The notes under the pieces are model-generated. The model was not told the origin of the DNA. It saw nothing but the letters and a program-made list of their open reading frames with translations, and did no database searches. A program made the translations under genes and the position numbers. This document shows, piece after piece, positions 2,946 through 23,406 of a stretch of DNA of 31,298 bases. Source of the DNA: a virus (taxonomy: Duplodnaviria; Caudoviricetes); the IMG/VR virus record IMGVR_UViG_3300017778_001321, positions 1 through 31,298 of that record, one strand, 5' to 3'. Each line of letters starts with the position of its first letter. Within the stretch, counting starts at the first letter, position 1.

Positions 2946-3083
2946 GTGCCGCTGGTCAAATCCGCGTCAAAAGACGCCTTCCGCAAAAACGTGAAGGCTG
3001 AGATTGCCGCGGGCAAGCCGGCCAAGCAGGCTGTTGCCATCGCGTATGCAACCAAGCGCACGGCCGCAAAGAAGCAAAAGTAA
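2946..3083 (+). CDS. small basic protein
   Basis: 45 aa from GTG 2946, MPLVKSASKDAFRKNVKAEIAAGKPAKQAVAIAYATKR...; TAATG coupling to the portal gene. Confidence 0.75.
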   Translation: MPLVKSASKDAFRKNVKAEIAAGKPAKQAVAIAYATKRTAAKKQK

Positions 3084-5269
3084 TGGCATCAAACGACGTA
3101 GAAGCAGCGGGCAGCGTATCGGACAGCGACGACAAGGATCGGCTGTCGGCTATGCGCCGGCGCTATACGATAGCGTTATCGGCCTATTCGGACAGCCGCG
3201 AGGACGAGCTGGACGACCTGCGGTTTATGGCCGGGTCGCCCGACAACCAATGGCAATGGCCGGCGGACGTGTTGTCAACTCGCGGGTCCGTGCAGGGCCA
3301 GACGATCAACGCGCGACCGTGCCTGACGATCAACAAGCTACCGCAGCATGTGCGCCAGGTGACGAACGAACAGCGGCAGAACCGCCCAACGGGCAAGGTA
3401 ATTCCGGCGGACGACATGGCCGACGTGCGCGTGGCTGAGATATTCGACGGCATGGTGCGCCACATCGAATACATCTCCGACGCCGACGTGGCCTACGATA
3501 CCGCCTGCGACAACCAAGTGACCTACGGCGAAGGCTACATCCGCATCCTGACCGAATACACCCGCGAGGACAGCTTCGATCAGGATATTAGGATTGGGCG
3601 CGTTCGCAACTCTTTCTCGGTCTATATGGACCCGGCAATCCAAGACCCGTGCGGCTCCGACGCCGAGTGGTGTTTTGTTACTGAAGATGTGAGCAAGGCT
3701 GATTATGAACGCATGTTTCCAGATGCTGCGCCAATTTCTAGCCTTTTGTCGCAAGGCGTGGGCGACCAGAGCCTTTCTCAATGGCTTTCGGAAGACATGG
3801 TACGTATCGCCGAATACTTCTACTACGAACACGAAAAAGCGACGCTAAACCTCTACCCCGACAACATCACGGCGTTTGCCAACAGCCCGCAAGACAAGCA
3901 ACTCAAGCAGATGTTTGGTAAGCCGCTGCGCTCGCGCTCGGTGGACCGCAAAAAAGTCAAGTGGATGAAGACCAACGGGTTTGAAGTTCTTGAAGAACGC
4001 GATTGGGCCGGCAAATACATCCCCGTTGTGCGGGTGGTTGGCAACGAGTTTGAGGTAGACGGCCAGCTTTACGTGTCGGGCCTTGTGCGAAACGCCAAGG
4101 ACGCCCAGCGCATGTATAACTACTGGGTCAGCCAGGAAGCCGAAATGCTGGCGCTGGCGCCCAAAGCACCCTTTATTGGTTATGGTGGCCAGTTTGAAGG
4201 GTACGAGATGCAGTGGAAAACGGCCAACACAAACAACTGGCCGTACCTAGAGGTCAATCCGGACGTTACGGACGGCGCAGGGCAGACTCTGCCGCTCCCG
4301 CAACGTGCTCCACCGCCTTTGGCTCAGACCGGCCTCATACAAGCTAAAATGGGCGCTGCTGAAGACATTAAGGGCACCACGGGGCAGTACAACAGCAGCC
4401 TTGGCGCCCAGAGCAACGAACGGTCGGGCCGGGCAATCCTCGCGCGTGAAAAGCAAGGCGACACGGGGACGTACCATTACGTTGACAACCTGTCTCGCGC
4501 AATCCGCTACGTCACCCGGCAGCTTGTGGACATGATCCCCAAGATTTACGACACCGCCCGCGTGGCGCGTATTGTAGGGTTGGACGGCGAGGTGGGTATG
4601 GTGCGGATTAACCCCACGCAGCCGGAACCAATGAAGGAAATCCGCGACGAAAACGGGTTTGTGATTGACAAGATCTATAACCCGTCGGTCGGCGTTTACG
4701 ACGTGTGCGTGACCACAGGACCAGGCTACATGACTAAGCGCCAGGAAGCCTTGGACGCCATGTCGATGCTGTTGCAGTCCAATCCTCAGCTTTGGTCCGT
4801 TGCCGGTGATCTATTCGTCAAAAACATGGATTGGCCAGGCGCGCAGGAGATGGCGGCGCGGTTTGCTAAGATCATTGATCCAAAGGTTATGGAAGGGGAA
4901 GATCAATCCCCTGAAATGCAGCAAGCCAAGATGCAACTTGAGGCACTGACCAAAGAACTCAACCAAGTGGTCGGCATGTTGCAGCGGGTCGAGCAGTCTA
5001 TTGAGGCCCAAGAGGTCCAAATCAAGGCGTATGACGCCGAAACCAAGCGCATTTCGGCGGTCCAGGCGGGCATGTCGCCTGAGCAAATTCAAGACATCGT
5101 GATGGGCACCATTGCTGCGGCCATGGATACGGGCGACATTGTGGGCCGCGACACGCCTATGGAGCGCCAAATGCCGGCTATGGATCAAATGCCGCCTGAA
5201 ATGGGTGGTATGCCGCCAGACATGGCTCAAATGCAACCCGAAATGCCCCCAGGAGGGCCAATGCAATGA
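3083..5269 (+). CDS. P22-like portal protein
   Basis: 728 aa; RPCLTINKL, GEGYIRI, GLVRNAKDAQRMYNYW, SGRAILAR motifs; C-terminal coiled-coil barrel and Met/Pro-rich tail. Confidence 0.95.
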   Translation: MASNDVEAAGSVSDSDDKDRLSAMRRRYTIALSAYSDSREDELDDLRFMAGSPDNQWQWPADVLSTRGSVQGQTINARPCLTINKLPQHVRQVTNEQRQNRPTGKVIPADDMADVRVAEIFDGMVRHIEYISDADVAYDTACDNQVTYGEGYIRILTEYTREDSFDQDIRIGRVRNSFSVYMDPAIQDPCGSDAEWCFVTEDVSKADYERMFPDAAPISSLLSQGVGDQSLSQWLSEDMVRIAEYFYYEHEKATLNLYPDNITAFANSPQDKQLKQMFGKPLRSRSVDRKKVKWMKTNGFEVLEERDWAGKYIPVVRVVGNEFEVDGQLYVSGLVRNAKDAQRMYNYWVSQEAEMLALAPKAPFIGYGGQFEGYEMQWKTANTNNWPYLEVNPDVTDGAGQTLPLPQRAPPPLAQTGLIQAKMGAAEDIKGTTGQYNSSLGAQSNERSGRAILAREKQGDTGTYHYVDNLSRAIRYVTRQLVDMIPKIYDTARVARIVGLDGEVGMVRINPTQPEPMKEIRDENGFVIDKIYNPSVGVYDVCVTTGPGYMTKRQEALDAMSMLLQSNPQLWSVAGDLFVKNMDWPGAQEMAARFAKIIDPKVMEGEDQSPEMQQAKMQLEALTKELNQVVGMLQRVEQSIEAQEVQIKAYDAETKRISAVQAGMSPEQIQDIVMGTIAAAMDTGDIVGRDTPMERQMPAMDQMPPEMGGMPPDMAQMQPEMPPGGPMQ

Positions 5270-5628
5270 GTTGCGCTGAATTTATTGGCAATCTGTTTTT
5301 GGCCCGTGATGTGGCCCATTCGGTCCATCTGAACACGCGCAGCTACGCCAAGCATAAGGCTTTAGGCAAGTTTTACGACAGCGTAATCGACCTTGCGGAC
5401 AAATTTGCCGAGGCGTACCAAGGCCGGCACGGGCTAATTGGCCCGATTTCCTTGCACTCAGCGCGCAAAACATCCAATATCACCGAATTTCTTGAGGATA
5501 ACCTCAAAGAAATTGAAGATGCGCGCTATAAGGTGTGCGACAAGTCTGATACGGCGTTGCAGAACATAATCGACGAAATTGTTGGCTTATACTTGTCAAC
5601 GCTGTATAAACTCAAATTCCTGGCATAA
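5266..5628 (+). CDS. ferritin/Dps-like four-helix protein (DUF5856-like)
   Basis: HSVHLNTRSYAKHKALGKFYDSVIDLADKFAE contains H...H-x14-D-x3-E, the Dps ferroxidase spacing; ATGA coupling to portal. Confidence 0.7.
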   Translation: MSCAEFIGNLFLARDVAHSVHLNTRSYAKHKALGKFYDSVIDLADKFAEAYQGRHGLIGPISLHSARKTSNITEFLEDNLKEIEDARYKVCDKSDTALQNIIDEIVGLYLSTLYKLKFLA

Positions 5629-5640
5629 GGACGCCGACTG

Positions 5641-5943
5641 ATGGAACTCCTTAAACCGCTTACTAAAGCAGATTTCCCCGCCCAAACCGCGTCTTTTACC
5701 GCCACGGCGGCTAATACGACCGGTTGGAACGCGGGACCGCAGGGTGTTGTGGTTTGGTCGGACCAGGCGTGTTACGTTGAAGTCGGCGAAGGGGCCGTTG
5801 CAACGACTGCCAGCACGCCGATACCGCCGTATACCCCCATTCCGTTCGCGGTTCCTATTACGACCAGCGGCGTTTGGCGGGTTAGCGCTATCCGAGTGTC
5901 TACCGACGGTATTCTGTACGCCAAACCTATCAATAAGGCTTGA
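5641..5943 (+). CDS. small beta-rich virion protein; candidate head-spike base
   Basis: 100 aa, SD TAAGGA; size, beta-rich composition and position ahead of an adaptor peptide and a fibre. Confidence 0.5.
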   Translation: MELLKPLTKADFPAQTASFTATAANTTGWNAGPQGVVVWSDQACYVEVGEGAVATTASTPIPPYTPIPFAVPITTSGVWRVSAIRVSTDGILYAKPINKA

Positions 5944-5946
5944 GAC

Positions 5947-6108
5947 ATGGGGTTTGCTGGCGCTTTACGAAACGGCGTTGCCATAGGGCTAGGCGCCATA
6001 GTTTCGTTTTTTTCAGGGTACGGCCCCGATCAAGCGCAAGGTAACCTTGAAACTGAAAATCTTGAGAACCTTACTCAAGAAGACAACGGTTTAATTTTGT
6101 TGGAGTAG
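5947..6108 (+). CDS. 53-aa adaptor-like peptide (not in ORF track)
   Basis: MGFAGALRNGVAIGLGAIVSFFSGYGPDQAQGNLETENLENLTQEDNGLILLE; fills the gap between its neighbours; shares the GAGACATGG start context with the next gene. Confidence 0.8.
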   Translation: MGFAGALRNGVAIGLGAIVSFFSGYGPDQAQGNLETENLENLTQEDNGLILLE

Positions 6109-6112
6109 AGAC

Positions 6113-7201
6113 ATGGCTGATAAAAAGATTTCGCAGCTTTCCGTTGCCTCTACGCCGCTTGCCGGGACCGAAGTGCTGCCGATTGTGCAAAGCGGCGCCA
6201 CAGTCCAAGTGTCGGTGGCTAATTTAACGGCGGCGCGCGCGGTCGCCGCCGCGGCCTTAACGGTAGACGCAAATTCAGTTTCAGACGCTGTTCGCATTAC
6301 CCAAACAGGCAGCGGCAACGCACTGGTGGTGGAAGATAGCACCAATCCTGATGCAACTCCTTTTGTGATTAATGCTTCCGGCAACGTGGGGATTGGGACC
6401 AGTTCGCCAGACGCTGCGCTAACCGTGAATACGGTTGCATCTTTTGGTGCGGGAGCAACGGCCTTGCCGTCTATTGCGGCTAAGGGTGATCTTGATACCG
6501 GAATATGGTTCCCAGCGGTTAACACTATTGCTATTAGCACAGCAGCCTCCGAGCGGTTTCGCATCACCAGCACTGGCAACGTGGGGATTGGCACGAGCGC
6601 CGCTGACGCTGCACTCACAGTGAATACCGTGGCATCTTTTGGTGCGGGAGCGGCGGCGTTGCCGTCTATCGCAGCTAAGGGCGACCTCAATACAGGTATG
6701 TGGTTCCCTGCTGCTGACACTACCGCTGTTAGCACGGGCGGCTCCGAACGCCTTCGCATTAATTCCAGCGGCAACGTGGGGATTGGGACGAGTTCGCCTG
6801 ATTACTTGTTGACCTTGCAATCTGCCGATTCGGCAATCAGTATGAAGGATAGTGGCGGTACGACGCGAGGATTTATCGGTATTGCGGGGGGGTTCGGGAC
6901 TGCACCGACGGGTGCGTTGCGGCTACGGTCGGATCAGGGCGGTCTGGTTTACGGCTTTGCAGGCACCGAGCAACTCCGCATTGACACCAGCGGCAACGTG
7001 GGGATTGGCACGAGTTCGCCTTCGGCATCTGCGATTTTGGACGCGCAAAGCACCACAAAAGGTGTGAGGCTGCCCAACATGACCACAGCACAGAAAAACG
7101 CTATTGCCAGCCCCGCTGCGGGTTTGATGGTGTTCGACACCACTTTGGCCAAACTTTGCGTTTATTCCGGCGCGGCATGGCAAACAGTCACATCAGTTTA
7201 A
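6113..7201 (+). CDS. modular fibre protein (probably head fibre) with four GNVGIGT repeats
   Basis: N-terminal MADKKISQL domain, four GNVGIGTS junctions, C-terminal KGVRLPNMTTAQKNAIASPAAGLMVFDTT domain. Confidence 0.8.
   Translation: MADKKISQLSVASTPLAGTEVLPIVQSGATVQVSVANLTAARAVAAAALTVDANSVSDAVRITQTGSGNALVVEDSTNPDATPFVINASGNVGIGTSSPDAALTVNTVASFGAGATALPSIAAKGDLDTGIWFPAVNTIAISTAASERFRITSTGNVGIGTSAADAALTVNTVASFGAGAAALPSIAAKGDLNTGMWFPAADTTAVSTGGSERLRINSSGNVGIGTSSPDYLLTLQSADSAISMKDSGGTTRGFIGIAGGFGTAPTGALRLRSDQGGLVYGFAGTEQLRIDTSGNVGIGTSSPSASAILDAQSTTKGVRLPNMTTAQKNAIASPAAGLMVFDTTLAKLCVYSGAAWQTVTSV
6380..7008 (+). repeat. four exact 17-bp direct repeats GGCAACGTGGGGATTGG; 195-bp tandem duplication
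   Basis: Copies start at 6380, 6575, 6770 and 6992 (spacing 195, 195, 222). Units 6380-6574 and 6575-6769 are homologous along their length. Confidence 0.95.
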
Positions 7202-7232
7202 AATGCAAACGCAAGAGCAAAAACAAAATGCG

Positions 7233-7311
7233 TAGCGCACTTTTTACCCTTTATCGTATAAGGGTTAAAATCCGTACTGGCGCGGTTCACCAGGGTTCGT
7301 AAGGAACACCA
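7233..7311 (+). promoter_or_regulatory. late promoter candidate plus structured scaffold 5' UTR
   Basis: TTTACC (7243-7248)-17 bp-TAAAAT (7266-7271) overlapping the inverted repeat ACCCTT/AAGGGT; downstream CCGTACTGGCGCGGTTCACCAG and a GTTC/GAAC hairpin over SD AAGGA. Confidence 0.55.
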
Positions 7312-8094
7312 ATGTCTGAAGCAGTACAAGACTTAGCGGAAGTGCCCGCGCCGGATCAGGCCGCCACGGCGGCGCCTGCGCCCGATGATATTACGCCGGC
7401 TGAAGCGTCAACGGACGCGCCTAAGACCTTCTCGCAGGAGGAATTGGACGCAATCGTTGGCAAACGCCTTGCCCGCGAACAGCGGAGATGGGAACGAGAT
7501 CAAGCCCAAAAACTGGCTGAACTGGACGCGCGGCGGGCAATGCCCGTCAACCCTCCCGCGCCTGACGATTTCGACAATGCTGCGCGTTATGCAGAGGCTT
7601 TGGCCGAGCAAAAAGCGCAGGAGATGTTGCGTCAGCGTGATGCAGCCCAGCAGCAGGCTAAATGGCTGGAAACCTACCATGAGAAAGAGGAAGACGCTCG
7701 CGGGCGGTACGACGACTTTGAACAAGTCGCCTACAACCCCAGCCTTCCTGTGACTGATGTTATGGCCCAGTCGATCCAGGCTTCTGACAGTGGCCCCAAC
7801 ATCATCTATTGGTTAGGGTCCAACCCGAAAGAAGCTGAGCGTATCTCTAAACTCCCTCCCTTTTTGCAGGCCAAGGCGATTGGTACGATCGAAGCCAAAT
7901 TGGCCGCCGATCCGCCGGTCAAAAAAACCTCATCCGCGCCCGCCCCTATTGCTCCGGTAAATGCGCGGTCAACTTCATCTCCTGCCTATGACACGACGGA
8001 CCCCAGGTCCGTAAAAACCATGTCAACGTCAGATTGGATTGAAGCGGACCGCCAGCGCCAGATCAAGAAGTGGGAGGCATCCCGCAACCGCTAA
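7312..8094 (+). CDS. capsid scaffolding protein
   Basis: Acidic Pro/Ala N-terminus, KTFSQEELDAIVGKRLAREQR coiled coil, C-terminal KTMSTSDWIEADRQR; lies directly before the coat gene. Confidence 0.88.
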   Translation: MSEAVQDLAEVPAPDQAATAAPAPDDITPAEASTDAPKTFSQEELDAIVGKRLAREQRRWERDQAQKLAELDARRAMPVNPPAPDDFDNAARYAEALAEQKAQEMLRQRDAAQQQAKWLETYHEKEEDARGRYDDFEQVAYNPSLPVTDVMAQSIQASDSGPNIIYWLGSNPKEAERISKLPPFLQAKAIGTIEAKLAADPPVKKTSSAPAPIAPVNARSTSSPAYDTTDPRSVKTMSTSDWIEADRQRQIKKWEASRNR

Positions 8095-8112
8095 GTATAA
8101 GGATAAGCCACT

Positions 8113-9318
8113 GTGGCTAATTCACTTCTTACCATCGACATGATTACTCGGAAGGCTCTCGAAATCCTCGAGAACAACCTTGTGATTACCCGCACCGTGA
8201 ACCGCCAATACGACGACAGCTTTGCCGTCGAAGGCGCGAAGATCGGCTCAACCCTGCGTATCCGTCTGCCAGACCGCGCTCTGGTGACTGACGGCGCCGC
8301 GCTGCAAGTGCAGGACGACAACGAACAGTTCACCACGCTGACGGTTTCCAACCAGAAGCACATCGGTGTGAACTTTACGTCTGCCGAACTGACCATGCAG
8401 TTGGACGACTTCGCCGAACGCGTTCTCAAGCCGCGTATTTCGCAGCTTGCGTCCAGCATCGACGCGGATGTGGCCAACTCCTACAAGTCCATCTTCCAGT
8501 CTGTCGGCACCCCCGGCACGACCCCGGCGACCTCTCTGGTTCTGTTGCAAGCGCAGCAGAAACTGAACGAGTCAGCCGCTGTCATGTCTCCGCGCTACGC
8601 CACGGTAAGCCCCGCGGCCAACGCAGGGCTTGTTGAAGGCTTGAAGGGCCTCTTTAACCCGGTCAACACCATCTCTCGCCAGTTCAAGAACGGCCTGATG
8701 GGTGAAGGCGTGCTGGGTCTTGAAGAAATCAACATGTCTCAGTCCATCAAGCAGCATACGACCGGCTCCCGCACCGGCGCGCATACCGTGACGACCACGG
8801 TGTCCACGCAGGGCCAGGCGACCGTCAACATCACCGGCACCGGCTCGCAGGTCATCGCGGCTGGCGACGTGTTCACCATCGCCAGCGTGTTTGCAGTTAA
8901 CCCGCAGACCCGCGAATCAACCGGCTCGCTTCAACAGTTTGTTGTGACTGAAGCCAACACGGCTTCCGGCGGTGCGTACACCTCGGTGGCGATTAGCCCG
9001 GCGCTTTATACTTCGACAAATGCTCTTGCGACGGTGGACAGCTTCCCGCAGTCCAGCGCGGTGGTGACGTTCCTCGGCTCTGCGTCTACGCAGTACCCGC
9101 AGAACTTGATCTACCACAAGGACGCGATTTCCTTTGCGACGGCGGACCTTCTGTTGCCGCAGGGCGTGGACATGGCTTCCCGCCAGGTTCACAACGGCAT
9201 CTCGCTTCGTGTTGTACGCCAGTACGACATCAACAACGACCGCCTACCGTGCCGTATTGACGTGCTGTACGGTTTCAGCGCCATCCGCCCACCAATGGCC
9301 GTTCGGCTCTGGGGCTAA
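8113..9318 (+). CDS. major capsid protein, P22 gp5-like
   Basis: GTG start with SD TAAGGA; MANSLLTIDMITRKALEILENNL, AKIGSTLRIRLP, C-terminal CRIDVLYGF. Confidence 0.95.
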   Translation: MANSLLTIDMITRKALEILENNLVITRTVNRQYDDSFAVEGAKIGSTLRIRLPDRALVTDGAALQVQDDNEQFTTLTVSNQKHIGVNFTSAELTMQLDDFAERVLKPRISQLASSIDADVANSYKSIFQSVGTPGTTPATSLVLLQAQQKLNESAAVMSPRYATVSPAANAGLVEGLKGLFNPVNTISRQFKNGLMGEGVLGLEEINMSQSIKQHTTGSRTGAHTVTTTVSTQGQATVNITGTGSQVIAAGDVFTIASVFAVNPQTRESTGSLQQFVVTEANTASGGAYTSVAISPALYTSTNALATVDSFPQSSAVVTFLGSASTQYPQNLIYHKDAISFATADLLLPQGVDMASRQVHNGISLRVVRQYDINNDRLPCRIDVLYGFSAIRPPMAVRLWG

Positions 9319-9343
9319 CAGGTAGAGATAGGAGAACACAATC

Positions 9344-9760
9344 ATGGCTATTCCTTCTGTCGGTGGCGGCTATCAATTTGGTGATGGCAACCTAAATGAA
9401 ACCGAAATCGTCACTGTCCCTGCGCCGGCAACGGCTACGGACAGCGCGACGCTGACGGCCGCGCAGCTTACCAACGGCATCCTCATCGGTACGCCGACGA
9501 CGACCGCCGCGTACACGCTGCCGTTGGCAACTACGTTGGACGCCACTCTTACTAACTCCAAAGTGGGGTCTTCGTTTGATTTCAGCGTCATCAACACGAC
9601 GACCGCGGGCGTCATCACCATGACGACCAACACTGGCTGGACCATCGGTTCCAGCGGTTCGCAGGGTCTTATGACCATTGCAGCCACCGCCGGCACCGTT
9701 CGGTCTTTCCGCGCGCGGAAGTCCAGCGATGGCGCGTGGGCGCTGTACGCAATCTCGTAA
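9344..9760 (+). CDS. putative capsid decoration protein
   Basis: 138 aa, Thr-rich, AAYTLPLA motif, SD AGGAG; follows the coat gene. Confidence 0.65.
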   Translation: MAIPSVGGGYQFGDGNLNETEIVTVPAPATATDSATLTAAQLTNGILIGTPTTTAAYTLPLATTLDATLTNSKVGSSFDFSVINTTTAGVITMTTNTGWTIGSSGSQGLMTIAATAGTVRSFRARKSSDGAWALYAIS

Positions 9761-9767
9761 TCTACCC

Positions 9768-9798
9768 GGCCCCTGCTTCGGCAGGGGCCACCTCCTTT
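9768..9798 (+). terminator. strong hairpin (terminator or mRNA stabiliser) after the capsid genes
   Basis: GGCCCCTGC-TTCG-GCAGGGGCC perfect 9-bp stem with C(UUCG)G loop; weak T-tract (ACCTCCTTT). Confidence 0.65.
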
Positions 9799-9808
9799 AG
9801 AGGCATAC

Positions 9809-10021
9809 ATGGCTGTTATTTACCTGACGCATCCCCAGCACGGCACTAAGGTGGCTATTATGGACGCCGAAGCAATTTATGATGAAGAATGCGGCTGGAA
9901 GCGCTATGATCCCGCCGCGCCGGCTTCTGCATCGGACATTGAACCTGTCAACGGGCTAGTTGTCCGGCGGCGCCGCACTCGGGTAACCAAAGAGGACGAC
10001 AGCAATGGCAACGGCGGGTGA
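9809..10021 (+). CDS. hypothetical protein (head-completion region)
   Basis: 70 aa, MAVIYLTHPQHGTKVA..., SD AGAGG. Confidence 0.7.
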   Translation: MAVIYLTHPQHGTKVAIMDAEAIYDEECGWKRYDPAAPASASDIEPVNGLVVRRRRTRVTKEDDSNGNGG

Positions 10022-10715
10022 CCAGATAAACGGAGCGCTTCGGCTGCTTGGGGTGCTGGCAGAAGGCGAAACGCCATCTGCTGAAACGTCTCAAGACGCG
10101 CTTAACGCGCTCAATCAAATGATTGACAGTTGGAATACCGAACGGCTTACCGTGTTTTCTACTCTGGACCAAGTGGAAACTTGGCCGCCGGGGCAAGCGT
10201 ATAGGACATTTGGCCCGACCGGCAACATCGTAGGCGACCGACCGATCTTGGTGGACGACAGCACCTATTTCCGCGACCCCGCCAGCGGCATCTCATACGG
10301 CCTCAAGCTGATTAATCAGCAGCAGTACAACGGCATCGCGGTTAAGACCGTGACCAGCACATATCCACAAGTGCTGTGGATCAACATGACATTCCCCAAC
10401 ATCGAAATGTATGTGTACCCGGTGCCGACTAAGGTGCTGGAGTTTCACATCGTCTCGGTGCAACCGTTGTCTCAACCGGCAAACTTGGCGACAGAATTGA
10501 CGTTTCCGCCGGGCTATCTGCGGTGTTTCCGCTACAACTTGGCGTGTGAAATTGCGCCTGAGTTTGGTGTTGAACCCTCGCCGCAGGTGCAGCGTATCGC
10601 CATGACATCTAAACGCAATCTTAAGCGTATCAACAACCCTGACGACATCATGGCGCTGCCGTACAGCATCGTTGGCACCCGCCAACGCTACAACATCTTT
10701 GCCGGCAATTATTGA
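10005..10715 (+). CDS. head-to-tail adaptor (P22 gp4-like)
   Basis: MATAGDQINGALRLLGVLAEGETPS...ALNALNQMIDSW; YNLACEIAPEFG. Confidence 0.8.
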   Translation: MATAGDQINGALRLLGVLAEGETPSAETSQDALNALNQMIDSWNTERLTVFSTLDQVETWPPGQAYRTFGPTGNIVGDRPILVDDSTYFRDPASGISYGLKLINQQQYNGIAVKTVTSTYPQVLWINMTFPNIEMYVYPVPTKVLEFHIVSVQPLSQPANLATELTFPPGYLRCFRYNLACEIAPEFGVEPSPQVQRIAMTSKRNLKRINNPDDIMALPYSIVGTRQRYNIFAGNY

Positions 10716-10724
10716 GGTGACATC

Positions 10725-11336
10725 ATGACCACTGTAGCAATCTCGCAACTTCCTCAAGCCACCACTACATCCGGCACGGATGATTACCCGTTGGTGCAGG
10801 GGGGAATTACCAAGCGGATTACGTTTACTAATTTGTTTGCCAACGCGACCGGCGTCCCGATTATCGCAGGCACCACGGGTACGCTTTCGGTTGCGCGCGG
10901 CGGCACGGGCGCCACAGTGGCCACGGGGACGGGCAATGTTGTTCTTGCTACTAGTCCCTCGCTAACGACCCCCACGCTAACGACCCCCACTATTAGCGCT
11001 GCAACCTTTACCGGTACGCAGACGTTTAACGGACCCATAGCAAGCGCCGCGCAGGCGCTGTCTGGCGCTGGCGCGGTCAACATTACTGAGTTGACCACCA
11101 AGTTTACTTCTACTGCGGCAGGCAACGCGCTCACGCTTGCCAACGGCGTGGAAGGGCAGATAAAGGTAATTGTGTACGTGGCCGAAACCGCGGGCGGTGA
11201 TACAGGCATTTTGACGCCTGCAAACCTCGGCGCCGGCACCACAATCACGTTTAACACTGTGGGCGACGCTTGTATTCTTCAGTACCTTGGTACTGATTGG
11301 TGGGCCGTTTCGCTCCGCGGCGCAGTGCTAGCCTAA
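10725..11336 (+). CDS. short fibre/appendage with N-terminal ISQL domain
   Basis: MTTVAISQLPQA...YPLVQGGITKRIT aligns by eye with the N-terminus of the 6113 protein; LSVARGGTGAT and LTTPT repeats. Confidence 0.7.
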   Translation: MTTVAISQLPQATTTSGTDDYPLVQGGITKRITFTNLFANATGVPIIAGTTGTLSVARGGTGATVATGTGNVVLATSPSLTTPTLTTPTISAATFTGTQTFNGPIASAAQALSGAGAVNITELTTKFTSTAAGNALTLANGVEGQIKVIVYVAETAGGDTGILTPANLGAGTTITFNTVGDACILQYLGTDWWAVSLRGAVLA

Positions 11337-11339
11337 CCA

Positions 11340-12974
11340 ATGAAGACGCCGATCCTTGGCTCGACCTACGTGGCCCGCAGCGTCAACGCTGCGGACAGCC
11401 GCATGGTCAATTTGTTTCCAGAGCTTGTGCCTGAGGGCGGCAAAGAACCGGCGTTTCTTCAACGTGCGCCGGGTTTGCAATTGCTTGCCACGGTCGGCAC
11501 CGGGCCTATCCGCGGGCTGTGGCAGTTTGGTGCATATGGGTATGTGGTGTCCGGCGGTGAATTGTACCGCGTGGATACGTCTTGGACAGCGACTTTACTA
11601 GGTATAATTAATGGGTCTGGTCCCGTTTCCATATCTGATAACGGAACGCAACTTTTCATTGCCGCTAACGGCCCAAGTTTTATATACAACAGCGCCACAT
11701 CTGTGCTTGCGCCCATATCTGACCTTGATTTTCCAGGTGCAGGGTCTGTGGGATTTTTGGACGGCTATTTTGTGTTCAACGAGCCTAATAGTCAAAAGAT
11801 ATGGGTTACAAGCCTGCTAGACGGTACGTCGGTTGACCCGCTTGATTTTGCCAGCGCCGAAGGTTCGCCGGACGGCGTGGTGTCTATCATAGTGGATCAC
11901 CGCGAGGTGTGGGTGTTTGGCACCAATTCGGTTGAAGTTTGGTATGATTCTGGGGATGCCGATTTTCCGCTTACGCGGGTGCAAGGTGCGTTTAACGAAA
12001 TAGGTTGCGCCGCTGCGTATTCCGTTGCCAAGCTGGACAACGGCTTATTTTGGCTTGGCTCTGACGCGCGTGGGCGCGGAATTGTGTACCGCGCCAACGG
12101 TTACACCGGAACGCGCATTTCCACCCACGCGGTTGAGTGGCAAATACAGCAGTACGGCGACATTTCGGACGCCATAGGCTATACCTACCAGCAGGACGGC
12201 CATTCATTCTATGTTCTGATTTTTCCATCCGCCAACACAACCTGGGTGTACGACGTGGCCACGCAAGCTTGGCATGAGCGCGCAGGCTGGGATAACGGCG
12301 AGTTTACGCGGCACCGCAGCAACTGCCAGATGTCGTTTAATAACGAAATTGTGGTTGGCGATTTTGAGAACGGCAACATTTACGCTTTTGACTTAGATGT
12401 TTACGCCGACAACGGGCAAATTCAACGCTGGTTGCGGTCTTGGCGGGCAATACCAACCGGCCAAAACACGCTTCTTCGCACAACGCAGCACTCTTTGCAG
12501 CTTGATTGCGAAACAGGCGTGGGGTTAGACCTATACCCCGCGTACGACGCGCAAGATTTAATTGCAGAGAACGGCGATTTGATAATCGCTGAGTATGTTC
12601 AAAATGACATATCTACTGAGTCCGGTGATGAGTTGACTACAGAAGCTGGCGACGAGTTTGCATTGCTTGTTGATGCGCCTAACTACCCTATTCCGTTTGT
12701 ACCTCCGATGTATCTAACCACAACCAGTTACCCGGCTGCGCCAGGTTACAATCCGCAAGTCATGTTGCGGTGGTCTGACGACGGCGGGCACACATGGTCG
12801 AACGAGCATTGGAAGTCTACGGGTCAAATTGGCCGCTACGGCTTCCGCACCATCTGGCGCCGGTTGGGCATGACTATGAAAATCCGCGACCGTGTGTATG
12901 AAGTGTCCGGCACGGACCCAGTAAAGATTGCCATCATGGGCGCGGAATTACGAGCCAGTCCGACCAATGCTTAA
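11340..12974 (+). CDS. tail hub / packaged DNA stabilisation protein (P22 gp10-like)
   Basis: GPIRGLW, FLDGYFVF, FASAEGSPD, RISTHAVE, TWVYDVATQAWHER, WSDDGGHTWS; carries an acidic insertion at ~12555-12670. Confidence 0.9.
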   Translation: MKTPILGSTYVARSVNAADSRMVNLFPELVPEGGKEPAFLQRAPGLQLLATVGTGPIRGLWQFGAYGYVVSGGELYRVDTSWTATLLGIINGSGPVSISDNGTQLFIAANGPSFIYNSATSVLAPISDLDFPGAGSVGFLDGYFVFNEPNSQKIWVTSLLDGTSVDPLDFASAEGSPDGVVSIIVDHREVWVFGTNSVEVWYDSGDADFPLTRVQGAFNEIGCAAAYSVAKLDNGLFWLGSDARGRGIVYRANGYTGTRISTHAVEWQIQQYGDISDAIGYTYQQDGHSFYVLIFPSANTTWVYDVATQAWHERAGWDNGEFTRHRSNCQMSFNNEIVVGDFENGNIYAFDLDVYADNGQIQRWLRSWRAIPTGQNTLLRTTQHSLQLDCETGVGLDLYPAYDAQDLIAENGDLIIAEYVQNDISTESGDELTTEAGDEFALLVDAPNYPIPFVPPMYLTTTSYPAAPGYNPQVMLRWSDDGGHTWSNEHWKSTGQIGRYGFRTIWRRLGMTMKIRDRVYEVSGTDPVKIAIMGAELRASPTNA

Positions 12975-13517: not shown

Positions 13518-15254
13518 ATGGCTAATCTCAGCCCCCCGCCGAAACTACAATTTTTTGACGCTAACGGCGTTCCTTTGGCCGGCGGCAAATTATATTCTTA
13601 CGCCGCCGGCACGACAACGCCCCTGGCGACGTACACCAGCGCCGGCGAAACAGCCTTCAACACTAACCCCGTTATTCTAAACGCCCGCGGCGAAGCTGAA
13701 GTGTGGCTAGGGGCGCCGCTGTATAAATTTAAATTAACTACGGCGGCGGACGTTGAAATTTGGACTGTTGACAACATTAATTCTTTGGCTGGTCTTTCGG
13801 CCGCCATCGTGGCGTCAGAAACAGCTATCAAAGCGTACTACGCCGCAAGCGACGGGTCATCTAAGGTAGGGTTTATTCAAGCGGGCGTTAGCGCCGTTGC
13901 GCGCACCGCGCAAGCCAAAATGCGCGATATCATTAACGTGCGCGATTTTGGCGCGGTAGGAGACCTTAACACCGATGATACTGCCGCCGTTCAAGCGGCG
14001 GTCAACGCGTCTAACGGCAACACGATCTTCTTTCCTACAGGGCAATACCGCCTTACCGCGCCGATTACAGCAACGCAAACCATTAGCGTTTTGGGTGTAG
14101 GAAATGGCGCAGGGCCGGGCGCGGCAGAGCAAAGCAACTCGCAAGTCACTCAATTCTTTTTGGACTTTGCCAACCCTTCTTGTTTTGTGGTGACAAACAC
14201 ACTCAAACCTTGTTTGTTCCGTGATTTCCAAATTAACGTCAATCCCGCTTGGCGCCCCGCTGGCGCGGGCCGAGGCATTTCAATTTCTGCACCGAGCGGG
14301 ACAGGCACCAACGCAAATACCAAGATTGAAAACGTCGCTTTCAATTGGCTGCATACGCCAATTTACGCCTACAAGCCTAACTGGTGGACAATAGCGGGGT
14401 GCTATTTTGGAAATTGGACCAGCGACGCCATTTTCTCAGAAACGCAATCTGGCATTGAGGCATCGCTTGGGTGGGTACGGGGAAATTATTTTTTTGGTGA
14501 CCCAACCGTTTCTCAGCGGTCGTGCATAAATCTACAGAACGGGTACACCATTATTTCCGAAAATGAAATTCTTGGCACCCAATCCGGTATACGCATTGAC
14601 AACGCCAACTTCCCTGCCGGGTTCATTAAGATAATCAATAACACCATAGAAGAACAGTTTTATTCGGGCGTTTATCTGGTCGGGACCGACACGAACGACG
14701 TTACCATGGTAGATATATCTGGTAATGAGTTTTCGGCGGTAAGCACCGCTGCGTCATACTTGGCAAGCATCTGGATTGGCGATGGCCCGGCGCGTCAATG
14801 GCTGCAAGATGTCACTATTAAAAACAACATAACACGCAATTTAGGCGTATGCTCGCTTGGTCATATGCGGGTAGGCGCGGGCGCTAACGTCATGGTTTCC
14901 GACAATCTGCTTGAAAATATCGGCGGCTCTGCGGTTGTTAGTGGGTTAATCATCAATGGAACAGCAAGCAACGCGGCGCTTGCGGCGCAGATTGCCGTGC
15001 TAGATAATATGTTTCGAGGCTCGTTCACGAATAGATATGATCTAAACGCTTTAGGCGGAACAGGTACAATCTTACGCGACACAGTGGCGATGACTGTCGC
15101 GCAGATACCAATCAACATAGCAGACGGCAGCGAGGTTTATACAAGCGACGGTCGCAGTACGGGGGCCGCTAACCTGACCTTGATTGCCGGCGGCGCTGGC
15201 GCCAAAGCAATTCGGCAGCGCGGCGCTTGGTTGACGCCGGGGTTTCTGGCATGA
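13518..15254 (+). CDS. tailspike with right-handed beta-helix (pectate-lyase-3-like), likely polysaccharide receptor-binding depolymerase
   Basis: Particle-binding N-terminus QFFDANGVPLAGGKLYSYAAGTTTPLATY, INVRDFGAVGDLNTDDTAAVQAA motif, Asn/Ile beta-helix repeats. Confidence 0.9.
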   Translation: MANLSPPPKLQFFDANGVPLAGGKLYSYAAGTTTPLATYTSAGETAFNTNPVILNARGEAEVWLGAPLYKFKLTTAADVEIWTVDNINSLAGLSAAIVASETAIKAYYAASDGSSKVGFIQAGVSAVARTAQAKMRDIINVRDFGAVGDLNTDDTAAVQAAVNASNGNTIFFPTGQYRLTAPITATQTISVLGVGNGAGPGAAEQSNSQVTQFFLDFANPSCFVVTNTLKPCLFRDFQINVNPAWRPAGAGRGISISAPSGTGTNANTKIENVAFNWLHTPIYAYKPNWWTIAGCYFGNWTSDAIFSETQSGIEASLGWVRGNYFFGDPTVSQRSCINLQNGYTIISENEILGTQSGIRIDNANFPAGFIKIINNTIEEQFYSGVYLVGTDTNDVTMVDISGNEFSAVSTAASYLASIWIGDGPARQWLQDVTIKNNITRNLGVCSLGHMRVGAGANVMVSDNLLENIGGSAVVSGLIINGTASNAALAAQIAVLDNMFRGSFTNRYDLNALGGTGTILRDTVAMTVAQIPINIADGSEVYTSDGRSTGAANLTLIAGGAGAKAIRQRGAWLTPGFLA

Positions 15255-16916: not shown

Positions 16917-18890
16917 ATGTCCGGTTCATTTGCACCGCTTAGTTTTGGTGAATTTAAAGCGCCCGATATTGTGGGCATCTCTAACGCCATGCAGGGGTTG
17001 GAACTCAACCGTATGCGGTCGCAGCAGTTGCAGGGCGCCGAAAGTGAGCGCAACGCGCTGCGGCAATACCTGTCCAACCCTAACGTCGACATTATGTCGC
17101 CTGAAACCAGCCGTCGCGTGTTGGCGGTTGCGCCGACCATTGGCGGTCCTGCGCTTAGCGCGGTTGTTGCCGCGCGCCGGGATGCAATGCAAGCGCAAAC
17201 AGCACAAGCTGAGTTGCTGTTAAAAAACATAGAAGTTGGTCGTGAACGTTTGGTGCCCATTAGGACGCTGCCGGAACCCGACCGACCTGCGGCGTACGCC
17301 TCTTGGCTTGATGATATGGAGCGCCGGATTCCGGGTTTTCGTCAAGGCGTTCCCCAAACATATTCGCCCGAAGCATACATAGATTTAATATCTAAGGCCA
17401 ACGAAATTATTTCCGCTAATAAACCTGACTATGTCGTGACACAAGTGCCGGGGTCTCCGCCGTTTTTGACAGACCGCCGCACAGGCATGACGCGCCCGGC
17501 TACCGAAGCAGAAGCCGCAGGCGCGCCAGCCGCACCGGCCGCTGCGCCCCGCGCTGGAGGCCCTGCGATGTCGCCGGGCCAAACAGCCGCGGCGGACTTC
17601 CTGCGCCGCCGCGAAGGGTTCCGCGAATCACCCTACTACGACGTAAACGCCTTTCGCGCCGGCTACGGCAGCGACACCGCGACACTGGCCGACGGCACGG
17701 TCGTGCCGGTGCGCCAAGGTATGACGGTCAGCCGCGAAGACGCCGAGCGCGATCTGGCCCGGCGCATCCCGCAATTTGAACAGCGTGTTGTTGCCGCTGT
17801 CGGGCAAGAACAGTACGCAGCGCTACCACCCAACGCGCAAGCCGCGCTGATTTCCATCGCGTACAACTACGGCACCCTGCCCGGCAGCATCCGCGCCGCC
17901 GCCCGGTCGGGCAATCCAGCCGCGCTGGCGCAAGCTGTGGCCGGGCTGGCCGCCGACAATGAAGGCGTCAACGCTGGGCGCCGCCGCGCAGAAGCCGCCA
18001 TGATTACCGGCGGCAACGCTATGGCGCCGGGCGCCATACCCACCAACGCCATGGCGCAGGCTGATGCTACGGCGATGAACATGCCTCAGTTTCCAACCTT
18101 TGCCCCGCCGCGCACGCTGGCCGAAGCAGACTATCAAAAGCGCATGATGGATGCAGTAGCGGAGTTGGAGAAGAAGCGGATTGAAGCCGACCGCGCGCGC
18201 GCTGAGCAGCCTGGACGAGTGCAAGAAGCAGGGCAAACGGCCGGCGCAATTGCTGGCGCGCAAGCCGATGTTCGCCGTGCGGGCCAGCCTGGACGAGTGG
18301 AAGAAGCAGGGGAAACGACCGCCGCGCAAACACGGGCAAAACTTGAAACCGAGGAAGCTATTAAGCGTCGCCAAGACGCCGAACGCTTGGACACGGCCAT
18401 ACGCGAAGTAGAAAAGCTTATCCAACCGGGCGGGTTGTTGCAGAGGGCCACCGGCAGCGGCGCGGGGGCTTTGATTGACGCGGCTGGTAATTTAGTCGGT
18501 ATGTCTAGCCGCGCAGCCGAAGCCGCAGCGGCCATACCGCCTATCGCAGATTTGGTGTTGAAGATGGTGCCGCGGTTTGAAGGACCGCAAGGCGTGCGAG
18601 ACGTACAAATTTACGAAAAGGCGGCGGGTGACTTATCAAACCCCACAACCCCCAATCCTCAACGGTTGGCCGCCGCGCGAGAAATTTTACGTCTTATGCG
18701 GGACCGGCGCGATCAATTTTCGTACACCGCGGGCGGCAGCACAACGCCAACAGCCGGTTCTGCGCCGCAACGCCCGGCTGCAACGGCGGCACCCCCTGCG
18801 CCTCCTGCGCCGCCCGGTATGTCGCAAAGCGATTGGGGCCGTTTGTGGGGCGTTATGAAACCTGAGGAGCGCGCGCTGTGGCAGAACTAA
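16917..18890 (+). CDS. DNA ejection protein 2 with GH24 lysozyme-like domain
   Basis: FLRRREGFRESPYYDVNAFRAGYG...LPPNAQAALISIAYNYG (E-x8-D) at ~17580-18010; remainder helical and Ala-rich. Confidence 0.82.
   Translation: MSGSFAPLSFGEFKAPDIVGISNAMQGLELNRMRSQQLQGAESERNALRQYLSNPNVDIMSPETSRRVLAVAPTIGGPALSAVVAARRDAMQAQTAQAELLLKNIEVGRERLVPIRTLPEPDRPAAYASWLDDMERRIPGFRQGVPQTYSPEAYIDLISKANEIISANKPDYVVTQVPGSPPFLTDRRTGMTRPATEAEAAGAPAAPAAAPRAGGPAMSPGQTAAADFLRRREGFRESPYYDVNAFRAGYGSDTATLADGTVVPVRQGMTVSREDAERDLARRIPQFEQRVVAAVGQEQYAALPPNAQAALISIAYNYGTLPGSIRAAARSGNPAALAQAVAGLAADNEGVNAGRRRAEAAMITGGNAMAPGAIPTNAMAQADATAMNMPQFPTFAPPRTLAEADYQKRMMDAVAELEKKRIEADRARAEQPGRVQEAGQTAGAIAGAQADVRRAGQPGRVEEAGETTAAQTRAKLETEEAIKRRQDAERLDTAIREVEKLIQPGGLLQRATGSGAGALIDAAGNLVGMSSRAAEAAAAIPPIADLVLKMVPRFEGPQGVRDVQIYEKAAGDLSNPTTPNPQRLAAAREILRLMRDRRDQFSYTAGGSTTPTAGSAPQRPAATAAPPAPPAPPGMSQSDWGRLWGVMKPEERALWQN
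18207..18317 (+). repeat. 33-bp direct repeat, 78-bp period
   Basis: CAGCCTGGACGAGTG(C/G)AAGAAGCAGGG(C/G)AAACG at 18207 and 18285, two mismatches. Confidence 0.9.
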
Positions 18891-21897: not shown

Positions 21898-22060
21898 GCA
21901 ATTCCCGGCGCTCGCGTAGCGTCCGCAACGCGGTAAATCGCTGGTGCATCCGCACCAACAGCGTCGCGCGCCGCTCGCCCTGGCGTTCTTCTTCGATCAT
22001 CGTCGCCAATTCGTCTTCGCGCAGGCTGCTCAACCGGACGTTCAATTCGCGCCAATTCAT
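21872..22060 (-). CDS. small helical hypothetical protein
   Basis: 62 aa, ATGA-coupled to the helicase stop. Confidence 0.7.
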   Translation of the reverse strand: MNWRELNVRLSSLREDELATMIEEERQGERRATLLVRMHQRFTALRTLRERRELLTSTSPAP

Positions 22061-23406
22061 TTTGCGGTGCCTTTCAATTCATCCAACGCCAAGTCAGACA
22101 CGGCGCGCTTGTCATAAAGCGCAGCCCAGATGCGTTCGTCAATCGTTTTGTTGCAAAGCAGCACATAGACCCAGACCGGATGCTTCTGCCCGCTGCGGTG
22201 CAGCCGCCCCACCGTCTGCTCGAACAGTTCCAGCGACCAGGGGATGGACATAAACACCATCTTGCTACCCCCGTGCTGAAGGTTCAGCCCGTGCCCCGCC
22301 GACTTGGGGTGAACCAGCAACAATTCGATCTTGCCGGCGTTCCAGCGCTCAATGGCGTTCGGGTCGTCAATCGTCGCCGCCTGGGGATACCGGCGCTTTA
22401 ATTCGGCAAGCTCCTCCTTAAAGTTGTAGACGATGATCGTGTTGGCGCGCTGGTTGCCTTCCAAGATGTCGGCCAGCGCCTCAAACTTATGGTCTGAAAA
22501 CCAAATGGCTTCCTGGCTTGGCGTGAATTTCCCTGCGATTTCCTCCGCGACGGTCGTGCGGAGATAAACGAAGCCGCTGGCCATCTGTTGCAGCTTGTTC
22601 GTCACCGCCGCGGCGGATAGCGCCGTGATCTGGCGCCCGCCCAGGTTCACCAAAAACTCCTTCTTCATCTTCTCGTACGGCAGCCGGTCGGGCATGTCAC
22701 AGCGCGTTTCGACGGTGTGGAGCGGCGGCAACTGGTCCTTATACTCGCCCGGCTCAAGCACGAAGGTAGCAGGCCGGATGGCGTCCATGATGCCCACAAG
22801 CGCGCCGGTGCGCGGCGCCCATTCGCCAATCTCGCGGTTGAGGCAGACGAAATACTTTTGCAGGAAGGCCCCCTTGGACCGGCCAAGCAGCATTTGGTCC
22901 ACCATCTTGCACTGCCCGAACACGTCTTCCAGGCCGTTGCTGGTAAAACTGCCGGTCAGGCCCCACCGATACTTGAACCAGCCAATGAACTTAAAGAGCG
23001 ACTTAAACCGCTTGCCGCCGGGGTTCTTTAGGCGGGTCAACTCGTCGAACACGATCCCGTCAAAGGGACCGATGCCGCCGGGGATGCGCTCAATGTTGTC
23101 GTAATTCGTCACCACCACCGGCGCGTCCGACGCAAAGGCGTCCGCGCGCTGCTTCGGCGTCCCCACCGCAACCGCAATCTTCATACCCGGCGCCCATTTC
23201 GACCCTTCAACCGGCCATACGTCCGTGCAGACGCGCTTCGGCGCCAGCACCAGCCACCGCTTGACGTGCCCGTCCGACAACATAGCCGACATGGCGGTCA
23301 GGGTTATGGCCGTCTTGCCCGCGCCCACCGGCGCTAGGATCATCGCGCGGTCGTGTTCATAGAGGAAATCCGCCGCGTCATCCTGATACGGTCGCAGCCC
23401 AACCAT
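22057..23406 (-). CDS. SNF2-family (SF2) helicase
   Basis: LRPYQ, APVGAGKT, VFDEL, GLTGS, SAGHGLNLQ, EQTVGRLHRSGQ. Confidence 0.95.
   Translation of the reverse strand: MVGLRPYQDDAADFLYEHDRAMILAPVGAGKTAITLTAMSAMLSDGHVKRWLVLAPKRVCTDVWPVEGSKWAPGMKIAVAVGTPKQRADAFASDAPVVVTNYDNIERIPGGIGPFDGIVFDELTRLKNPGGKRFKSLFKFIGWFKYRWGLTGSFTSNGLEDVFGQCKMVDQMLLGRSKGAFLQKYFVCLNREIGEWAPRTGALVGIMDAIRPATFVLEPGEYKDQLPPLHTVETRCDMPDRLPYEKMKKEFLVNLGGRQITALSAAAVTNKLQQMASGFVYLRTTVAEEIAGKFTPSQEAIWFSDHKFEALADILEGNQRANTIIVYNFKEELAELKRRYPQAATIDDPNAIERWNAGKIELLLVHPKSAGHGLNLQHGGSKMVFMSIPWSLELFEQTVGRLHRSGQKHPVWVYVLLCNKTIDERIWAALYDKRAVSDLALDELKGTAK

Follow-up and report, generated by a model that had tools for sequence, protein, structure and literature searches.

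An acidic peptide tag and the ISQL fibre module as a probable portable docking joint in a P22-like podophage

Judged by its gene content, the virus record IMGVR_UViG_3300017778_001321 (Duplodnaviria; Caudoviricetes) comes from a P22-like podophage; its 31,298 nucleotides (31 kb) are referred to here as the window. We analysed two copies of a short acidic peptide tag and two copies of a fibre-starting domain, the ISQL module, in this window. Tag 1 (6046..6105, + strand) is the C-terminal acidic triple (residues 34-53) of a 53-residue adaptor, which is encoded by an open reading frame (ORF) at 5947-6108 (+). Fibre 1, a likely head fibre of 362 residues (6113..7201, +), starts 4 nucleotides after the adaptor ORF and begins with ISQL module 1 (residues 1-42; 6113..6238, +), a predicted trimeric catcher. 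Fibre 2 (203 residues; 10725..11336, +) begins with ISQL module 2, a subtype without Lys5 (10725..10847, +), and is likely docked on a loop of the nozzle. The nozzle, a P22 gp10-like protein (head closure Hc3; 11340..12974, +), was matched by phrog_578 in two pieces (E 1.5e-131) and by PF11134 (E 1e-5), and it carries a 78-residue insert (12519..12752, +) with a two-strand unit (12558-12593) and the tag 2 triple (12609-12668). An earlier note on this DNA had reported two ISQL proteins and two acidic tracts; the sequences that it quoted were all found where it had placed them, and at the threshold given below the window contained two ISQL modules and two tag sites, no more.

Aligned relatives showed that the tag is a 20-residue triple of three strands with a period of 8, roughly L-x-T-E-x-G-x-x twice and then L-x-x-E. 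In tag 1, E37, E45, and E53 were invariant among the aligned adaptors. A two-unit tag pattern gave 165 matches in 2.74 million translated residues from the loci collected by then, versus 6-13 matches in five shuffles. The acidic (L/I)xxE repeats of the earlier note are thus real and beyond chance in comparison with shuffles, but they are not an open tract: they make up a triple with a period of 8 that spans 20 residues. A weight matrix was built from 40 tags, and the threshold was set at 16 because a single shuffled segment attained 15 and none attained 18; tags 1 and 2 scored 37.8 and 39.7, respectively.

The ISQL module comprises about 40 residues. Searched against 1.84 billion cluster representatives, a module profile retrieved 13,897 with E values no higher than 0.001, and in the best 150 hits the module was mostly N-terminal and was also found repeated inside fibre shafts. 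Separately, P0002, P0006, P0085, and P0098 were seen to contain 3-9 tandem copies, the module doubling there as a fibre shaft repeat. Pfam and PHROG scans returned no family for the adaptor, the 100-residue protein encoded upstream of it, fibre 2, or the ISQL module. For PF18454 (Mtd N-terminal beta-prism), no Pfam hit of a useful level was obtained in 30/30 module members, and its Atlas feature score of 0.88 was treated as a lead only; the narrow module profile A1 found nothing useful among PDB sequences. Residues 175-330 of fibre 1 matched PHROG tail-fibre families (E 1e-33), and a match to the Bdellovibrio Bd2133 fibre was also obtained for fibre 1 (E 1.6e-5). A cellular role of the module was considered and not supported: 120 pattern matches in bacterial and archaeal genomes included 8 real modules, 3 of them with a tag just upstream.

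A search for module starts with a degenerate DNA pattern yielded 123 viral loci. Among starts with enough upstream DNA, a tag ended within 165 nucleotides upstream of 38/103 distinct in-frame module starts, versus 3/338 other ORF starts on the same strand of the same loci, some of which had supplied training tags and some of which were near relatives. The proteins carrying tags were unrelated, and included adaptors of 45-57 residues, a 190-residue protein, proteins of 750-820 residues, and others with N-terminal or internal tags. In the siphophage vB_EliS_R6L, the tag lies at the C-terminus of gp79, ahead of the ISQL fibre gp78; in the jumbo phage pEa_SNUABM_37, a tagged protein precedes a 1,131-residue fibre; and in Halomonas phage QHHSV-1, the pair is present with the tagged gene 3' of the fibre gene. 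The podophage DSL-LC05 has the tagged adaptor, a nozzle without the insert, and no second ISQL gene. As a side observation, a tag of G029 (L279:13670-13741) forms the C-terminus of the protein encoded next after the nozzle; the nozzle itself is without the insert, and this tagged protein is a third carrier in this phage group. A tblastn search of cultured phages with the nozzle tag region, a short query, gave no match. A PDB sequence search with the tag profile returned nothing useful, which was a false negative, since crAss001 gp39 holds the tag (see below).

The nozzle loop that holds the insert measures 10-18, 41-53, 77-80, or 84-88 residues in relatives. For 81 nozzles that had been parsed and had sufficient DNA upstream, the gene directly 5' of the nozzle was compared; a further 3 were dropped and others were not parsed. 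This gene was an ISQL gene in 16/16 nozzles with split-type inserts as in the window, which probably represent few lineages, in 2/46 with mid-length inserts, in 0/5 with other long inserts, and in 0/14 without an insert. Accordingly, the expectation that gp10 homologues without the insertion also lack the ISQL neighbour was borne out. The tag and the module had been described as adjacent both times. They do lie in neighbouring genes in the window, but the tag of pair 2 is 1.9 kb downstream of its module, and adjacency as a rule proved to be common rather than general, given the mid-length inserts and the 12 units with distant motifs described below. From its sequences, the nozzle loop seems to be a favoured place for docking peptides. 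Other observations on this loop are recorded here in their own right. In L043 (8001-9533, 2590-3759) and L028, it holds an L-x-L-N-F...Y strand, not the acidic tag, and the head-fibre-like protein of L043 seems to be without that first strand, a possible strand-complementation joint. The loops of L056, L283, L285, L325, L336, L368, L376, L383, L384, and L389 hold unrelated inserts of 42-50 residues, some with short internal repeats.

We then compared gain and loss of the two motifs across relatives, which were gathered by homology to the nozzle or to the P22-like major capsid protein (8113..9318, +; PF11651, E 4e-37), the latter also serving for the tree. Twenty records were taken whole or nearly so, and one of the six nozzle-search patterns fell within the insert, so that this search is biased towards tagged nozzles. 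After 14 duplicates had been dropped, 64 units including the window remained, consisting of whole records and of loci spanning the portal end to the nozzle end. Both motifs were present in 29 units and neither in 32, with the module only in 2 and the tag only in 1 (Fisher p 1e-14), in line with the co-occurrence that had been predicted across phage genomes. The two module-only units hold sub-threshold tags by eye, and the tag-only unit is a 13-kb fragment. Nineteen virus records had a completeness rating of 90% or more; the module was present in 9 of them, and a tag in the same 9. The pair trait changed 16-17 times on a quick coat tree, and on starred branches 6.4 of 7 independent pairs agreed (median p 0.03). 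No tag lay within 3 kb of any module in 12 units; co-occurrence in this subset had an uncorrected p of 2e-8, and core genes separated the two motifs in those units that were inspected. Because of these units, gene linkage alone is insufficient as an explanation, so the motifs appear to need each other rather than adjacency. Moreover, five units (G010, G018, G029, L019, and L058) encode two tagged proteins and one ISQL fibre each, suggesting that a single fibre can serve both head and tail.

We predicted a complex between adaptor residues 24-53 and module 1 in three copies, with no ion supplied. The interface score ipSAE was 0.86 (0.85-0.87 in three runs), versus 0.03 for the best of three controls, which agrees with the binding proposed earlier for an ISQL trimer and the tag. 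At least 95% of the contacts were common to the runs, and the pLDDT of the partners (predicted local distance difference test) was 81-83. The mark applied was reached by 116/157 solved and 2/215 mismatched pairs, a calibration only roughly applicable to this job. The model has pseudo-threefold geometry. Three tag segments (residues 34-35, 43-44, and 49-51) pair with residues 4-6, each on a separate subunit. The invariant glutamates lie in residues 36-37, 44-45, and 52-53, and each of these segments contacts Thr30 on another subunit, while the Leu/Ile of each tag strand lies on Pro23. Thr30 is invariant in module alignment A1, and the whole of tag 1 falls inside the predicted interface. As a model, this complex supports tag-module binding.

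The gene upstream of the adaptor encodes a 100-residue jelly-roll protein (5641..5943, +), likely the base of a capsid-vertex spike that holds the adaptor peptide. Its AlphaFold2 model built with an alignment was all-beta with a pLDDT of 95, and single-sequence folding gave a pLDDT of 49. Four fold searches returned generic jelly rolls or unnamed viral proteins (best Z 6.7-7.1, about 6-7 overall). Residues 1-24 of the adaptor (5947..6018, +) form a hydrophobic Gly-Leu plug, conserved in 14/14 aligned adaptors, that likely binds the spike base; next to 17/18 base homologues, the following gene starts with this plug, the exception being L309. Full head fibres in L400 and L404 share the N-terminus of the adaptor. 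In L400, the base homologue is followed by a full homologue of Rcc01080, the head fibre of the gene transfer agent RcGTA, with the adaptor N-terminus (E 3e-24). In the unrelated L124, a homologue of the RcGTA protein Rcc01079 (E 5e-9) is followed by a 43-residue tagged peptide and then by an ISQL fibre. PDB sequence searches made with the base of the window gave no useful match, and Rcc01079 was absent among the fold matches listed. From these gene orders and homologies, we infer that the base, the adaptor, and fibre 1 stand at capsid vertices and that fibre 2 stands on the nozzle loop.

Both partners were also recognised in phage crAss001. The hub protein THB gp39 (L487:20706-21050) ends in a full triple at residues 95-114 (score 18.6 on a matrix made from window-type tags), and residues 28-53 of the tail fibre gp22 (7qoj_J; L487:370-2868) match the broader module profile A6 (E 3.7e-4); the narrower profile A1 missed this match, and a single-sequence search gave E 1. 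The two genes are about 20 kb apart. By eye, the triple at the THB end is kept in 3/3 other Steigviridae (L610-L612; scores 21.5, 15.8, and 6.3; 38-48% overall identity), two of which gave a weak module match (E 0.02 and 2.5) and the third none. According to the accessible text of PMC10172136, each crAss001 hub, with one THB, holds a gp22 trimer in the mature virion, and THB is modelled to residue 107 and gp22 over residues 1-26. By homology, the crAss001 hub is the best independent support for the joint.

On this evidence, the acidic tag is likely a portable plug for a trimeric fibre base made of three ISQL modules. Three near-identical tag strands would wrap the three-fold base, and a single-chain virion protein could thereby hold a trimeric fibre. 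Each strand would pair with residues 4-6 of one subunit, rest its Leu/Ile on Pro23, and direct its Glu to Thr30 of a neighbouring subunit. The other end of the tag 1 adaptor would plug into the capsid-vertex spike base, giving head fibres (fibre 1), and tag 2 in the nozzle surface loop would hold fibre 2 on the tail. The portable tag/catcher system of the earlier note is thus favoured by co-occurrence, unrelated carriers, and the predicted complex, but its cation dependence and strict adjacency were not supported.

Several results weigh against such a plug. There was no tag just upstream of 65/103 module starts, and the tag matrix and the module profile were partly trained on shared loci. The module is not only a catcher, because it is an internal, repeated shaft unit in P0002, P0006, and P0098 and also starts fibres without a nearby tag: phi92 gp140 starts with the module with no tag detected nearby, and the module occurs without a tag in the stretch fetched in Flavobacterium tooticki6-1, Klebsiella KP12, and the rV5-like JeffSchatz. 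For the distant pairs only, the tree-corrected test was borderline (median p 0.06). The trimer is an assumption of the complex prediction, in which three module copies were imposed, and the score may partly reflect memory, because partial homologues are present in PDB 7QOJ. Most of the module and the third tag strand are missing from the crAss001 structure, because modelling ends at gp22 residue 26 and gp39 residue 107. The fold match of the spike base is generic (Z under 8).

Adaptors elsewhere end in other triples. In L244 (2207-2629), L335 (6135-7295), and L231 (6188-7228), an LxWG triple with the same period stands before a different fibre start; L448-L484 are further LxWG loci. The LxWG-type fibre start was found at 37 loci, of which 30 were parsed and 25 were distinct, and the LxWG tag was immediately upstream in 25/25. 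Elsewhere in 4 Mb of collected DNA, the LxWG pattern matched 6 times, and 4 of these matches were known cases. L231 carries the LxWG pair and the acidic pair together. In G019 (C1:6405-7918), the adaptor is of a third type, with a longer VLxS repeat, and the fibre after it has a third conserved start. Profile comparison did not support homology between the LxWG catcher and the ISQL module (probability 2%), and the two are called analogous. Two phi92 proteins, gp140 (L485:13992-14465) and the endosialidase gp143, have the module at their start (E 1e-13 and 1e-9, respectively). The protein gp142, encoded directly 5' of gp143 (gp142 and gp143, L485:17350-19634), has at its end a triple that is barely acidic and scores below the threshold (13.3). 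This arm is left unresolved in the 2026 phi92 structure, as far as the accessible text of PMC13450770 describes it, and gp142-gp143 is a candidate for the joint of phi92 fibre I. As a set of sequences, the variants support the notion of a docking code and argue against a need for cations.

The earlier note had suggested that docking might depend on cations. A joint that needs a bridging Ca or Mg ion held by the acidic residues of the tag would be compatible with the three invariant glutamates and the variable Asp/Glu of the tag, and the RcGTA spike base is described in the text available for PMC7296036 as gripping the capsid via a putative cation. Such a joint is nevertheless unlikely: the predicted complex passes without ions, with the glutamates on Thr30, a module threonine; the conserved interface residues of the module are Lys, Ile, Ser, Pro, and Thr rather than acidic; and non-acidic triples of the same period (LxWG type and phi92 gp142) precede similar or analogous fibre starts, the LxWG type at the same site in other genomes.

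We regard it as very improbable that the module is a general trimerisation or shaft unit and the tag an independent surface or ion-binding motif, the two travelling together in accessory cassettes without contact. The internal module repeats, the several isolates with a module and no nearby tag, and the many pairs in neighbouring genes would fit that explanation, but it does not account well for the 12 units whose only tags are in conserved core proteins more than 3 kb from the fibre gene, versus the 32 with neither motif, for a symmetric predicted interface with controls at 0.03, or for the presence of both partners in the one solved crAss001 hub despite their distant genes. Least credible is a tag bound only during assembly, as a nucleator or chaperone for fibre trimers that finally stand elsewhere on the particle; this is compatible with every sequence test and with fibres that are unresolved in phi92 (PMC13450770, accessible text), but the tag is built into stable virion proteins (the nozzle, a tail-tip hub, and the crAss001 collar), and the crAss001 fibre N-terminus was seen in the hub of the mature virion (PMC10172136, accessible text).

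The plug made by the acidic tag may belong to a wider class. We lean slightly towards the view that tailed phages share interchangeable plug-socket joints, with variants (acidic, LxWG, and others) that have their own catchers, and that crAss001 gp39-gp22 and phi92 gp142-gp143 are instances. Such pseudo-threefold tags of 20 residues could be placed in adaptors of the head, in nozzles, in tail-tip hubs, in collars, or at the ends of fibres, and the trimeric fibre module of about 40 residues would read them. If this is true, virion wiring would be readable from sequence. Accessory-fibre joints are mostly invisible in cryo-electron microscopy through flexibility, as the available texts state for crAss001 (PMC10172136) and phi92 (PMC13450770). 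With a tag and a common unannotated module in hand, thousands of "hypothetical" proteins could be annotated as docked fibres, with the fibre position read from the genome. The joint would explain how host-binding appendages are added or dropped without remodelling core proteins. As a compact, naturally occurring one-to-three coupling of peptide and protein, it might also be useful for protein assembly.

The P22-like gene set of the window includes terminase, portal (3083-5269), scaffold, coat, gp4-like adaptor (10005-10715), nozzle, and tailspike. The main beta-helix tailspike (13518..15254, +) has neither ISQL module nor tag. A small DUF5856/Dps-like protein (5266-5628) lies directly 3' of the portal, a position conserved in relatives. 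The product of 16917-18890 is a likely ejection protein with a phage-lysozyme domain inside (PF00959, E 4e-9). A SNF2-type helicase (22057-23406) is the sole well-matched minus-strand gene and lies between lysis and replication genes.

Peptide-docked fibres are already known in kind, from crAss001, RcGTA, rope-and-bead fibres, branched receptor-binding proteins, and JBD30. The crAss001 hub, in which gp39 and THA gp38 hold gp22 (PDB 7QOJ/7QOL/8CKB), has the same period-8 triple and the same module as the window, and its ratio of one THB to each gp22 trimer is consistent with a single tag per trimer. It differs in that the fibre has a 17-residue N-terminal extension in a dedicated A2B hub and its first strand is without the ISQL consensus, whereas the tags of the window are on a nozzle loop and a head adaptor. 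No crassvirus hub family was among the Pfam and PHROG matches of the window proteins, and no direct gp38 search was made against the window. In the RcGTA spike (Rcc01079 pentamer with Rcc01080; PDB 6TB9), a jelly-roll base gene is likewise followed by a Gly-Leu plug, which takes the shape of a five-pointed star inside the pentameric base (PMC7296036, accessible text), and one chain matches a symmetric oligomer through internal repeats. The relatives L400 and L124 connect the window genes to both RcGTA proteins. The base of the window itself gave no direct match to Rcc01079 in sequence and no specific one in fold among the matches listed. In RcGTA, the plug and the fibre are one monomeric protein, whereas the window has a 53-residue tagged adaptor and a separate, predicted trimeric fibre.

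In rope-and-bead fibres (A1002 nozzle-rope gp39 with gp40/gp41, the GP4 rope, and the Bas63 collar-whisker), an extension with repeated sites takes up fibre subunits by beta-sheet augmentation; they differ in that the beads are dimers of 140-170-residue proteins along the rope, as the available texts describe (PMC13730344, PMC12609058), and our PDB sequence searches gave no match of a bead protein to the tag, the module, or the fibre N-terminus. In the branched receptor-binding proteins of KP32, K11, and KP34, which are podophages of Klebsiella (PMC13352976, available text), a short conserved element and a partner domain add a second receptor-binding protein in a modular way; compared by description only, the polarity is reversed, with the peptide on the fibre and the domain on the carrier. 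The accessible descriptions of the A-1(L) neck fibre, the Pa223 spike, and a homo-oligomer preprint mention no such motif. The earlier note had left it uncertain whether the system was undescribed: homologues of both partners are present in the solved crAss001 hub, but the accessible text of PMC10172136 names no tag/module motif and no portability. No account of this portable tag/module pair was found in the literature covered, with subscription papers and supplements (which may include crAss001 hub contacts) outside its scope. New here are the tree-aware co-occurrence, the distant-pair test, the crAss001 gp39 tag, the phi92 candidate, and the LxWG variant. In the JBD30 baseplate hub (PMC11445458, available text), one C-terminal tail likewise holds a receptor-binding trimer, but it is inserted into an alpha-helical bundle, part of an anchor domain of the T7-like kind, and not into a beta-strand module.

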